Of a stretch of 64,000 nt of DNA, positions 6,226 to 48,465 are shown piece after piece. The position numbers and the translations under genes were made by a program. Source of the stretch: Gemmatimonadota bacterium. Its GTDB lineage: Bacteria > Gemmatimonadota > Gemmatimonadetes > Gemmatimonadales > GWC2-71-9. The DNA is taken from assembly GCA_016720805.1 (NCBI GenBank), contig JADKJZ010000014.1, positions 193,772 through 257,771 of the forward strand, given 5' to 3'. Position 1 is the first letter of the stretch, and each line of letters starts with the position of its first letter. The notes below the pieces were generated by a model that had not been told where the DNA came from, did no database searches, and saw nothing but the letters and a program-made list of their open reading frames with translations.

Positions 6226-6657
6226 GTGGCACGCACCAGACGTCGCGGTGGCACCAACGTCGCACCACCGTCCGAAGCAGCGGTTCTCCCAGGTCCCGCC
6301 GGCACCACCGTTTCTCGCCCCGCTGGACGCACCTACGGCTCCCATCGTGAATGGCTCCTGGCCAGGCACGGGTCGGTGTGCGCGTACTGTGGCGCCAAGG
6401 TTCCACCCGAAACCATCACGCTCGACCACGTCCGGCCGCGTCGCGGCCAGTCGGCCTACGACCGGCCCGACAACCTGGTCCTCGCCTGCCGCCCCTGCAA
6501 CGCCGCCAAGGCCGACATGCCGCTGCTGGCGTTCCTGATGGCGCGCCGCGCGCGTGGTGTCTTCCTGCTGCACTACGGCGATCACCTCTCCGACCCGCTG
6601 AAGGAATTGGTGCGGAAGTCGAGTGAGCGGCCGTTGTTGCCGCCGGAGAGTCGTTAG
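6226..6657 (+). CDS. HNH endonuclease
   Basis: CAYCG ... TLDHVRPRRGQ ... NLVLACRPCNAAK (His-Me finger with Cys pairs). GTG 6226 is preceded by GGAAG. Lower-GC promoter-like DNA at 6150-6225. The stop TAG lies in the heptamer array. Confidence 0.75.
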   Translation: MARTRRRGGTNVAPPSEAAVLPGPAGTTVSRPAGRTYGSHREWLLARHGSVCAYCGAKVPPETITLDHVRPRRGQSAYDRPDNLVLACRPCNAAKADMPLLAFLMARRARGVFLLHYGDHLSDPLKELVRKSSERPLLPPESR

Positions 6658-18869: not shown

Positions 18870-18901
18870 TCGCCGTTCGCTTCTCGCTTCTCGAGTCTCG
18901 C
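18860..18901. repeat. Period-7 tract: GGTTCGC TGATCGC CGTTCGC TTCTCGC TTCTCGA GTCTCGC
   Basis: Six units of the form NNN-TCGC. Spans the yfcC stop (18867-18869) and ends 3 nt before the Rieske ATG 18905. Confidence 0.85.
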
Positions 18902-32154: not shown

Positions 32155-32156
32155 GG

Positions 32157-44285: not shown

Positions 44286-44416
44286 ACGGCGAACGGCGAA
44301 CGGCGAACGGCGAACGGCGAACAGCGGTAAGGGGTGAGGAGTGAGGGGGAACAAACCCCTGACCCCTCACCCCTCACCGTTTCCAACCGTTCGCTGTTCG
44401 CTGTTCGCTGTTCGCT
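44286..44416. repeat. Nested palindrome: 5x ACGGCGA + GGGGTGA-type block, loop, CCCCTCA-type block + 4x GTTCGCT
   Basis: Outer arms 44286-44327 and 44389-44416. Inner arms 44331-44348 and 44356-44378. Fills the whole pfkA/VOC convergent gap. Confidence 0.9.
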
Positions 44417-45192
44417 TACGCCGGCATCTCATACTTGATGACATAAAACATCACCCCCTGCGGTGACGCGATCCCCGCCATCCGCCCCACCGTCGGGATA
44501 TCGACGGGCGGCATGAAGACGCTGCCGCCGCTCGCGGTGGCCTTTGCGGCCGCGGCGTCGACATTGTCGACCGTCATGTACACCGCCCAGTGCGACGGGA
44601 AATTTCCCATCTCCGGCGTGATCGCCATCATCCCGCCCACCATCCGGTCGCCGGCATGGAAGACCGAGTAGTCCATCCCCGGCATGCTCATCTTCTCGAT
44701 TCGCCAGCCGAAGAGCGCGCTCCAGAAGGCGCCGGCCTTCTCGGTCTCGTACGTCGCGAGCTCGATCCAGCTCGGCGCGCCGTGATGCATCGAATCGGCC
44801 GTCATGCCTGGTGACACCCCGGCCTGCCAGACATCCATCTCGGCCCTGAACGGATCGAAGGTCTCGGCCATCCGCCCCGTCGGTCCGACGTCGAACGCCG
44901 GCTTCCCCAGCCCGCCGAGCTCGTTGGCCTTGGCCGACGCCGCGTCGGCGCTCTCGACGCGGATCATCAACCCGATGCCGGGTGGCGTGCTCGGGGGCAT
45001 GTTGGGGCCGCTCGTGTCCCACATCCCCCCGACTTCCTGACCACCCACCTTGATCAGGTGGCCGCCCATCTCCGGGATCTCGGAATACTCCCAGCCGAGC
45101 ACGCCGGCGAAGAAGGCCCGCGCATCCGACGACGCAGGCGTGAGCACGTTGATCCAGCAGAATTCGCCAATCCGACGCGGACCTGAGAGCAT
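44416..45192 (-). CDS. VOC (glyoxalase/bleomycin-resistance) family protein, two-domain
   Basis: Two tandem beta-alpha-beta-beta-beta modules (FCWINVLT ... and WIELATYE ...). 258 aa. Confidence 0.75.
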   Translation of the reverse strand: MLSGPRRIGEFCWINVLTPASSDARAFFAGVLGWEYSEIPEMGGHLIKVGGQEVGGMWDTSGPNMPPSTPPGIGLMIRVESADAASAKANELGGLGKPAFDVGPTGRMAETFDPFRAEMDVWQAGVSPGMTADSMHHGAPSWIELATYETEKAGAFWSALFGWRIEKMSMPGMDYSVFHAGDRMVGGMMAITPEMGNFPSHWAVYMTVDNVDAAAAKATASGGSVFMPPVDIPTVGRMAGIASPQGVMFYVIKYEMPA

Positions 45193-45220
45193 GAGGGGAC
45201 TCGGAGAAGAGGTGGGCGGA

Positions 45221-45419
45221 GGTGAACGGTGAACGGTTAAAAGTGACCTGTGACCGGTGACCAGTGATCAGGAACTGGTAAGGGGTGAGGGGGCGCCCAT
45301 TCGGACGGATGTTCACGTCCTCCCGTTTCACCTGCCAGCCGTAACACCTCGGTCACAGGTCACAGGTCACAGGTCACAGGTCACAGGTCACAGGTCACAG
45401 GTCACTGGTCACCGTTCAC
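45221..45419. repeat. About 200-nt mirrored period-7 structure. Left: 2x GGTGAAC, GTGACC-type, GGGGTGA-type. Right: CGGTCAC, 7x AGGTCAC, TGGTCAC, CGTTCAC
   Basis: Left tract 45221-45290, right tract 45350-45419. The pabA stop TGA lies inside the right tract. Confidence 0.9.
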
Positions 45420-45975
45420 CCAAGAAGCTCCGCACCATCTTGAGTCCCGTCGTCGTCAGCACCGACTCCGGATGGAATTGCACCCCCTCGACCGGGTGCC
45501 GACGATGCCGAATTCCCATGATCTCGCCGTCATCGGCGCGGGCGGTGAGGAGCAGTTCCGGCGGCAACGTCACCTCGACAACGGCGAGCGAGTGATACCG
45601 TGTCGCCTCGAGGGGCGACGGCAATCCGGCGAAGACACCGAGGCCGTCGTGCGTGATTGGCGAGGTGCGGCCGTGACGCGGGTGTGCCGCGCGTTCGACC
45701 GTCGCGCCGTAGGCGGTGGCGATGACCTGGTGGCCGAGGCAGACGCCGAGGATCGGGGTGGTTGGTCCGAGGCTTCGTACGACATCGAGCGCGAGACTGC
45801 ATTCCTCGGGTCGTCCCGGGCCAGGGGAGAGGATGATGTGCGTCGGCGCCATCGCGCACACTGCCTCAAGCGACAGGGCATCGTCGCGACAGACCAGCGG
45901 TGCCTCGCCGAGCTCCTCGACATAGCGCGCCAGCGTGAAGACGAACGAATCCTCGTGGTCGAGGAGGAGGATCAC
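45409..45975 (-). CDS. pabA: Glutamine amidotransferase component II (aminodeoxychorismate/anthranilate synthase)
   Basis: Start moved to GTG 45975 (GTGA overlap with the pabB stop). GVCLGHQ catalytic Cys, and HPES. Confidence 0.85.
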   Translation of the reverse strand: MILLLDHEDSFVFTLARYVEELGEAPLVCRDDALSLEAVCAMAPTHIILSPGPGRPEECSLALDVVRSLGPTTPILGVCLGHQVIATAYGATVERAAHPRHGRTSPITHDGLGVFAGLPSPLEATRYHSLAVVEVTLPPELLLTARADDGEIMGIRHRRHPVEGVQFHPESVLTTTGLKMVRSFLGER

Positions 45976-48374: not shown

Positions 48375-48465
48375 AGTGAACGGTCAACGGTGAACGGTGA
48401 ACGGGCCTCCGAGCCGCAGCGCCGCAACCGATGGCATCGATCACCGTTCACCGTTCACCGTTCAC
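48375..48465. repeat. Inverted period-7 arrays: AGTGAAC GGTCAAC 2x GGTGAAC / CGATCAC 3x CGTTCAC
   Basis: Left array 48375-48402, 35-nt centre, right array 48438-48465 ending 18 nt before ATG 48484. Confidence 0.9.

Follow-up and report, generated by a model that had tools for sequence, protein, structure and literature searches.

Between the genes for a PabA/TrpG-type amidotransferase (pabA) and a VOC/glyoxalase-family protein, the 64,000-nt stretch of Gemmatimonadota DNA analysed here (the window) carries, at 45221-45419, two facing arrays of 7-nt units, GTGAAC-type units outside and GTGACC/GGTCAC units inside. We find that the arrays form a gene-less hairpin of three nested layers, GTGAACG outermost, GTGACCN in the middle and a GGGGTGA-type layer innermost; that this hairpin supplies the stop codon of pabA; and that its arms change length in 7-nt steps. 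The structure, which an earlier note on this DNA had treated as a local element, is one member of a genome-wide and lineage-wide repeat class, and that class of heptamer-armed hairpins is associated with cassettes that carry PF05635 genes. What might such a hairpin do? We put at about even the chance that its role is to terminate or protect the pabBA transcript.

Anatomy of the hairpin

The left tract keeps a single 7-nt register: GGTGAAC x2 (45221-45234), GGTTAAA, AGTGACC, TGTGACC, GGTGACC and AGTGATC, ending at 45269, followed by three decayed units, AGGAACT, GGTAAGG and GGTGAGG, ending at 45290. The right tract has ten units: CGGTCAC (45350-45356), AGGTCAC x7 (45357-45405), TGGTCAC (45406-45412) and CGTTCAC (45413-45419). 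Nine of the ten are of the GGTCAC type, and they face three perfect GTGACC units and one imperfect one on the left. The sequence is thus, unit by unit and over some 200 nt, what the earlier note had described, including the unequal copy numbers. The mirror order that it saw holds for the type of unit but breaks down at the variable seventh base, which gives CCT, CCG, CCA on the left and CCA, CCT x7, CCG on the right.

In Tandem Repeats Finder (TRF) the right arm scores 117, with 8.9 copies and 98% matches. It is the best period-7 array of the window, as the earlier note had it, and the eighth among the 766 that the program reports genome-wide; the left arm appears as overlapping period-7 rows of 5.7 and 4.3 copies. 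The whole locus is the fifth longest among 336 in the genome. A probe of three consecutive GGTCAC units, GGTCACNGGTCACNGGTCAC, finds 15 matches in the window with at most one mismatch, against an expectation of 0.00.

How do the arms fit together? The outer layer consists of GGTGAAC, GGTGAAC and GGTTAAA on the left (45221-45241), members of the GTGAACG family (written AACGGTG below), and of CGTTCAC, the complement of GGTGAAC, on the right (45413-45419). The middle layer pairs AGTGACC, TGTGACC, GGTGACC and AGTGATC (45242-45269) with the GGTCAC units of the right arm (45350-45412), five of whose AGGTCAC units have no counterpart in the sister species. The 5' side of the inner layer is made of the decayed but in-register units at 45270-45290, nearly invariant across three species, and the centre (45291-45349), which folds, is gene-free and is single-copy in the genome, contains a small GGACG..CGTCC stem together with the 3' side of the inner layer, CGTTTCACC. 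In the consensus fold of the three species this innermost layer pairs GGGGTGA with TTTCACC. A small side hairpin, CCAGT..ACTGG, is also found by the inverted-repeat finder at 45253-45286.

The same finder pairs 45221-45288 with 45353-45420 (68 nt, 74% complementary); overall the complementarity of the arms is 74-79%. The predicted folding energy is -116 kcal/mol for the minus (sense) strand and -121 kcal/mol for the plus strand (z about -6.8), so that a long hairpin is predicted on either strand, and none of 200 shuffled sequences was equally stable. The centre, 59-79 nt depending on where it is bounded, holds no open reading frame (ORF), and at E <= 1e-4 it has no match among the spacers of the 114 further multi-array loci. 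Neither GTGACCN nor GTGAACG contains a run of three G, so G-tracts of the G-quadruplex type are absent from the units. A search of the hairpin against Rfam gave nothing above threshold, only sub-threshold look-alikes of microRNA hairpins.

The stop codon of pabA

The gene for the PabA/TrpG-type glutamine amidotransferase (45409-45975, minus strand; Pfam GATase, 5.4e-49) encodes a protein ending in ...SFLGER, and its TGA, at 45409-45411, lies within the right arm. The end of the gene, GGT GAA CGG TGA, is the reverse complement of 45409-45420; the last three codons and the stop are themselves units of the array. The earlier note had placed the structure between the start of the VOC gene and the stop of pabA. 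The flanking genes, both on the minus strand, are as it stated, but the stop codon sits inside the array rather than beside it. Upstream of the hairpin the operon runs PTPS, pterin-4a-carbinolamine dehydratase, a chorismate-binding PabB/TrpE-type gene and the class-I amidotransferase.

A genome-wide class of heptamer hairpins

Is this arrangement peculiar to pabA? The genome (3.5 Mb in 16 contigs, 68% G+C, 96.6% complete) holds 251 perfect period-7 arrays of at least three copies, against 28 of period 6 and none of period 8. Period-7 arrays make up about 340 loci, and 95% of the 336 strong loci counted are intergenic. Only two of the 32 contig ends lie at arrays. About ten unit families dominate, among them ATCATCG (100 arrays), ATCATCC (94), AACGACT (85), ACCCCTC (70) and AACGGTG (57); the ACAGGTC family, which forms the middle layer of the hairpin at 45221-45419, has just 6. 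The usual locus consists of a left array, a unique centre and, on the right, the reverse complement of the left array; at many loci the centre takes the form of a typical GC-rich stem with A and T tracts, like that of a terminator.

Where the loci lie was determined with a simple codon-bias gene finder written for this analysis (3083 genes, 87% coding). They are most frequent in convergent gaps, of which 91 of 354 are occupied; the count for tandem gaps is 171 of 2355. Within tandem gaps the median distance from the stop codon to the locus is 1 nt (quartiles -5 and 10), and from the locus to the next start 40 nt. As many as 83% of loci are closer to a stop than to the next start. A locus lies within 40 nt of 297 gene ends; in 141 of these the stop codon is inside the locus, and in a further 95 it precedes the locus by 0-5 nt. 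For annotation this means that roughly 10% of the genes of this genome end at such a hairpin and that roughly 5% draw their stop codon from one. The arm next to the stop does not exceed the distal one in length.

The polarity of the arms is fixed. In all 96 of the 96 same-family inverted pairs the same form of the unit occupies the 5' arm, GGATGAT, AGTCGTT, GAGGGGT, CGATGAT, GTGAACG and GCGAACG included, and the hairpin at 45221-45419 follows the rule. In the 5' form G outnumbers C in eight of the nine families and equals it in the ninth; its reverse complement makes the 3' arm on both strands. Most 5'-arm units also include TGA or TAG, and since 7 is not a multiple of 3, three such units close all three reading frames. 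Purine-richness and stop content of the 5' arm are confounded, so that which of them is selected, if either, cannot be said.

One further dispersed element touches this class. A palindromic core of about 70 nt, GTCATCCCGA..CTGCGT-loop-ACGCAG..TCGGGATGAC, occurs at about 50 sites, its ends in 46-61 copies (for example C1:50733-50916 and C14:420489-420641). At least 14 heptamer hairpins, built from different unit families, have this core in the middle; it is absent from the locus at 45221-45419, and it also fills the site in a related species, G015, that is orthologous to window position 6649.

Conservation of the sites and turnover of the units

How stable are the hairpins between species? We compared the window with two species of the same genus, G010 and G015, in which gene order is kept and the flanks are 82-89% identical. 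At the same site G010 has three GGTGAAC units on the left and just four GGTCAC units on the right; G015 has outer units of the GTGAAAC type and five GGTCAC units. The window sequence thus carries a 35-nt expansion of five AGGTCAC units, which appears as a 35-column gap in G010, in G015 and in the one contig recovered by a metagenome scan, whose repeat structure is identical to the G010 form. Exact-protein look-ups for PabA and VOC, aimed at strain-level polymorphism, gave no match. The copy-number polymorphism and the presence in relatives by which the earlier note proposed to judge its finding are both there, in this comparison between species. The inner left arm and the centre are about 97% identical to G010, above the level of the flanking coding DNA.

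The same contrast, between a site that stays and units that change, recurs elsewhere. In seven other species of the genus the gene for PFK faces pabA directly, and in five of these seven gaps a heptamer hairpin begins at the stop codon; the five are built from other units, namely ACGGCGA, ACGAGAT, GAGTCCT, GAGGATG and, in one case, a decayed unit. Within the window all 13 heptamer-bearing gaps carry heptamer hairpins in both G010 and G015. Of 18 gaps that are array-less at the threshold used, 17 could be mapped in the relatives; they are array-free there too, except for the gap at 18870, where the window itself has a short sub-threshold array, and 12 of the 17 keep their length to within 1 nt. 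At most occupied sites the unit differs between species and the arms are still complementary. At 32156, for example, the arm pairs of the three species are GTCGTTA/TAACGAC, GTCGTAG/CTACGAC and GTCGTGA/TCACGAC. The central stems of several loci likewise stay paired through substitutions.

Beyond these species the density of perfect period-7 arrays was estimated from 200-kb samples. It is 14.3 per 200 kb in the genome studied, 6 and 10 in G019 and G022 of the same genus, and 2 and 0 in G025 and G026 of sister families; the latter two have few 7-mer arrays and some 8-mer arrays. More than 100 genomes of many phyla contain arrays of (GGTCACA)4 or longer, those of Streptomyces, cyanobacteria, Acidobacteriota, Bacteroidales and Planctomycetota among them; most of these arrays are unpaired, with complementary units nearby in only about 12 of 120.

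Possible roles of the hairpin

If the hairpin acts on the pabBA message, how might it do so? The PTPS-pterin dehydratase-pabB-pabA transcript would fold into a stem of about 60-70 bp right at the stop codon. This stem could end or stall transcription, block 3'-to-5' exonucleases, or both, and would thereby define and stabilise the 3' end of the operon mRNA and insulate the operon from VOC. The recurrence of TGA every 7 nt in the 5' arm would close all three frames within 21 nt, so that slippage of the array could extend PabA by only a few residues. The arms would grow and shrink by replication slippage, their complementarity being maintained over time. A role at the transcript end is supported by the start of the hairpin within the last codons of pabA, by the proximity of the class to stop codons genome-wide and by its enrichment in convergent gaps.

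The complement of RNA-handling factors bears on the same question. RNase III was not found in the genome: PF14622, PF00636, PF00035 (dsrm) and TIGR02191 were all negative, and the signature motif is absent in six frames. Among 61 high-quality genomes of the order PF14622 matched in just one, on a 1.5-kb contig. This appears, then, to be an order of bacteria without RNase III. Long RNA stems should therefore persist, and persisting stems fit a 3'-end barrier better than a processing site. Processing by RNase III, by analogy with the intervening sequences of rRNA, is rejected for this lineage since the enzyme was not found. Rho is present.

Several observations weigh against a role in ending or protecting the transcript. 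The sequence 3' of the stem, CCTCCGCCCACCTCTTCTCC, has no U-tract, and a consensus scan of the hairpin found no terminator-like site; in other high-GC bacteria, hairpins without U-tracts terminate poorly in vitro. A stem of 60 bp is far longer than a terminator needs. Divergent gaps are occupied too (56 of 358 by our own gene calls), and one such case in the window, a GTGAACG/CGTTCAC hairpin at 48376-48465 about 18 nt upstream of a likely ATG, misfits a terminator. Nor is there any sign of adaptation to the transcribed strand. Among the 171 loci in same-strand gaps the sense RNA is the more stable in 87 and the less stable in 74 (p = 0.12), and G-U pairs are equally frequent in sense and antisense; unpaired arrays show no orientation bias relative to transcription (72 versus 50). 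Finally, abutment on a stop codon is equally expected of a neutral repeat that expands until it meets constraint. The earlier note had argued that the structure must act as terminator, promoter region or both. What stands of this is the position at a transcript end, in the last codons of pabA and in a class that tracks stop codons; terminator-like and promoter-like sites were both missing.

It is possible, though we think it rather doubtful, that the hairpin does nothing for its host, being hypermutable or selfish heptamer DNA that is tolerated in the unconstrained space after stops. Its hairpin form would then be preserved by how such DNA arises, for instance through synthesis with fold-back or template switching, through ectopic conversion, or through re-seeding from cassettes that bear a gene. 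The absence of strand asymmetry and the occupied divergent gaps are as this reading expects, and so is the fast turnover of copy numbers and units between species whose flanks are 82-98% identical. That one unit variant recurs at scattered loci of a species speaks for a copying process and not for selection acting on each site, and at 45221-45419 the expansion by five units of one arm leaves units unpaired. A functionless repeat sits less well with the full conservation of occupancy, and of vacancy bar the short array at 18870, in three species; with a polarity that has no exception; with an inner arm and centre better conserved than the coding DNA around them; and with central stems that keep pairing despite substitutions.

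Heptamer-armed PF05635 cassettes

Do any heptamer arrays enclose a gene? The genome has two genes of PF05635, the family of the 23S rRNA intervening-sequence protein, at C14:932048-932583 and C14:840347-840838, both outside the window. Each is enclosed by inverted heptamer arrays of abundant families, GTCGTTA x4.1 / CTAACGA x5.3 around the first and GATGATG x6.1 / CCATCAT x4.3 around the second, which looks frameshifted. The codon-bias gene finder called neither gene, which suggests an atypical composition. Across the genus 40 of 52 genomes hold one to six copies. Period-7 arrays lie near 30 of the 31 genus loci inspected; at 19 of the 31 the two sides carry exactly the same family in inverted orientation, and at several others a single mismatch separates them. 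The background in the genome studied, by comparison, is 11 heptamer-bracketed genes of 3083. In the order as a whole the family is present in 105 of 121 genomes, and about 17 of 24 further loci have mirrored 7-mers, with 8-mers in two cases. Two sister-family cassettes (L249 and L257) have mirrored 8-mer arms, GCACAGAC/TCTGTGCG and CGGTGGAC/GTCCACCG.

The arms of the cassettes are built from the same units as the gene-less hairpins. In all 11 cassettes inspected, from five genomes, the arm unit is among the top five heptamer families of the host genome, and one G010 cassette has the arms TGTGACC x5.7 / GGTCACA x3.9, the unit of the hairpin at 45221-45419. Orthologous sites pass between gene-bearing and decayed states. 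At the 840-kb site the genome studied has GGATGAT arms and both G010 and G015 have CGATGAT arms. At 932 kb its gene with GTCGTTA arms corresponds to a decayed 236-nt remnant with GTCGTAG arms in G010 and to a gene with TGAGTCC arms in G015. At 362.6 kb it has a decayed remnant, G010 a gene with GTGACCN arms and G015 a gene with GTGAAAC arms. A species-specific variant of the unit is thus common to the cassettes and to gene-less loci elsewhere, which indicates concerted evolution over dispersed loci. An origin of the hairpins by deletion from cassettes was rejected, since the inner flanks of both PF05635 cassettes have no other copies in the genome.

We tentatively suggest, with well under even confidence, that the heptamer hairpins of this lineage, that at 45221-45419 included, belong to a replicator-like system in which they form the gene-less majority. 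The members with a gene would be the small PF05635 (S23p/Avd-like four-helix-bundle) genes in the same mirrored arrays, and the copies of each unit family, at dozens of scattered loci and around its gene, would evolve together. Such concerted evolution would imply that a process actively copies or homogenises the units, or that a unit-specific protein acts in trans. If this is right, the heptamer repeats of bacteria, a puzzle for decades, gain a candidate gene partner and a testable mechanism; and if the PF05635 link reflects mechanism, a large orphan protein family gains a role and a connection to rRNA intervening sequences.

A more specific proposal along these lines, which we regard as unlikely, is that the hairpins are binding platforms for a unit-specific nucleic-acid-binding protein. 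The PF05635 four-helix-bundle proteins would be the candidates, and the hairpins would be gene-less partners of the heptamer-armed cassettes as REPINs are of RAYT genes. The near-constant bracketing of PF05635 genes, the match of their arms to the leading families of the host, the G010 cassette with the unit found beside pabA and the orthologous sites re-armed in species-specific units all speak for it. Yet binding and mobility are only putative, the inner parts of the cassettes are single-copy, and just two genes, one of them probably frameshifted, would have to serve about ten abundant families, neither having GTGACC arms.

Very unlikely, finally, is a regulatory simple-sequence repeat of VOC, in which changes of copy number in the promoter or 5' untranslated region would tune or switch expression, as those of the 7-bp repeats upstream of the hmw genes do in Haemophilus influenzae: copy number does vary between species, and since only 28 nt separate the left arm from the start of VOC, a promoter specific to VOC would need to lie within the array or pabA, but the scan found no promoter-like site or hexamers in the hairpin, the expanded arm is the one distant from VOC, loci genome-wide track stops and not starts, and in G010 an insertion of 59 nt separates the array from the conserved VOC leader, which speaks against a promoter element that depends on spacing. 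Two other loci, C3:100919 and C14:172303, have comparable [GGTCAC]n[CGTTCAC]n arrays some 20 nt ahead of a start codon, which would suit such regulation.

Relation to known repeats

The closest published description of the hairpin is that of the paired heptamer repeats of Xanthomonas (Rehm et al. 2015, PMC4692102), and its kind is already known. That study treats heptameric repeats of the units GGGAATC in Xanthomonas and GGGGAYT in Nostoc. In Xanthomonas about 90% of the repeats are intergenic, at a mean of 28 nt from the upstream ORF against 160 nt from the following one, some of them extending over a stop codon; each genome has 70-75 convergent pairs capable of forming stem-loops, copy numbers are poorly conserved between species and the function is unknown (PMC4692102). 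Our repeats share with these the tandem 7-nt units (at least three to four), the intergenic excess of period 7, the convergent stem-loop pairs and the position close to or over stop codons. They share the polarity as well, the G-rich strand coming first on both strands, which is the "convergent" orientation of that paper. They differ in that Xanthomonas has one dominant G-tract unit, studied for quadruplex formation, whereas the present genome has about ten families, most without G-tracts; in that a single hairpin may nest as many as three families, in many cases enclosing a distinct terminator-like stem; and in the association with PF05635, of which PMC4692102 describes none.

Taken alone, then, the locus at 45221-45419 is an ordinary member of a described but unexplained class. 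The class as a whole sets rules for any explanation of heptamer repeats. Arrays abut stops; the polarity is invariant, with the G-rich arm 5'; the arms stay complementary; occupancy of a site is conserved over species divergence while the units turn over; and gene-less hairpins and PF05635 cassettes draw on common families.

Cyanobacterial heptamers of the short tandemly repeated repetitive (STRR) type, reportedly described by Mazel and colleagues in 1990, are said to form species-specific intergenic tandem sets whose function is unknown. MacGregor (2015, PMC4679880), reviewing heptamer repeats, relays an earlier proposal that 7 nt may be the length of a polymerase slippage. The TAACTGA repeats of Beggiatoaceae (PMC4679880) resemble ours as species-specific tandem heptamers in intergenic DNA of unknown function; unlike ours, they are direct repeats that end just upstream of starts, with one inverted pair reported. 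In Geobacter metallireducens (PMC2700814) elements with tandem heptanucleotide repeats have been read as regulator sites or regulatory RNA elements, and one class of element is drawn as looping back on the other strand. For none of the STRR, Beggiatoaceae and Geobacter repeats has a start at stop codons together with a fixed polarity been described. A Nostoc preprint reports that upstream heptamer repeats affect expression of a reporter, with no mechanism, and a survey of short tandem repeats (PMC12699852) does not mention heptamers.

The 23S rRNA intervening sequence of Coxiella burnetii (PMC4990558) has GACAGAT heptamers in its 5' part, in 2-3 copies according to strain, and the first of these repeats is the site of RNase III cleavage. 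Intervening sequences that carry an S23p (PF05635) ORF resemble the hairpin in their long stem of terminal inverted repeats containing heptamers; the hairpin at 45221-45419 differs in having no PF05635 ORF in its loop and in lying outside rRNA. Repetitive extragenic palindromes (REP), with the related BIME and REPIN, are likewise dispersed extragenic palindromes at the 3' ends of genes, specific in sequence to the species and long persistent at the same sites, and a role in protecting mRNA 3' ends has been proposed for REP elements. They are, in contrast, single palindromic units of 20-40 nt and not tandem 7-nt arrays. The REP/REPIN-RAYT system was rejected as the source of the hairpins. The single RAYT-like ORF of the genome is flanked by a REP-like palindrome, GGCGACGCATGCGTCGCC, with 24 copies genome-wide, and by a 33-nt repeat, not by heptamers, and the GGCGACGCATGCGTCGCC/RAYT-like system is separate from the heptamers. 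This RAYT-like ORF, a Y1 transposase with the HUH motif DHVHGLL (C10:31442-34609), adjoins the 33-nt tandem repeat (x4.1) in a region dense in recurring short motifs.

A miniature inverted-repeat transposable element was also rejected. The centre of the locus is unique, its spacer matching none of those of the other 114 multi-array loci, and only the arrays recur. Bidirectional intrinsic terminators have in common with the hairpin a GC-rich stem directly after the stop, foldable on both strands, and many sister loci enclose an A-tract, a stem and a T-tract. The hairpin at 45221-45419 differs from them in having no U-tract, a stem several times longer, and arms that are repetitive and hypervariable.

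Neighbouring genes and hairpins

Downstream of the hairpin the VOC/glyoxalase-family gene (44416-45192, minus strand; Pfam Glyoxalase, 3.8e-11) starts with an ATG at 45192, and is separated from the left arm by a 28-nt leader (45193-45220) of which the roughly 21 nt beside the ATG are nearly invariant in three species. The VOC gene stands between PFK and pabA in the genome studied, in G010 and in G015. The convergent gap between PFK and VOC holds a second, two-layer heptamer hairpin at 44286-44416, ACGGCGA x5.9 / GTTCGCT x4 around GGGGTGA / TCACCCC, which is the same kind of element as that at 45221-45419 and has other units at the same site in relatives. The PFK-side hairpin retains the ACGGCGA unit found in G005, and the pabA side has gained a different hairpin. 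In several short-read genomes of the genus (L008, L010, L011 and others) a contig ends less than 400 nt from the pabA match; in L008 the bases before the break are CCCCTCA units and a long C run, so that the contig breaks at a heptamer array.

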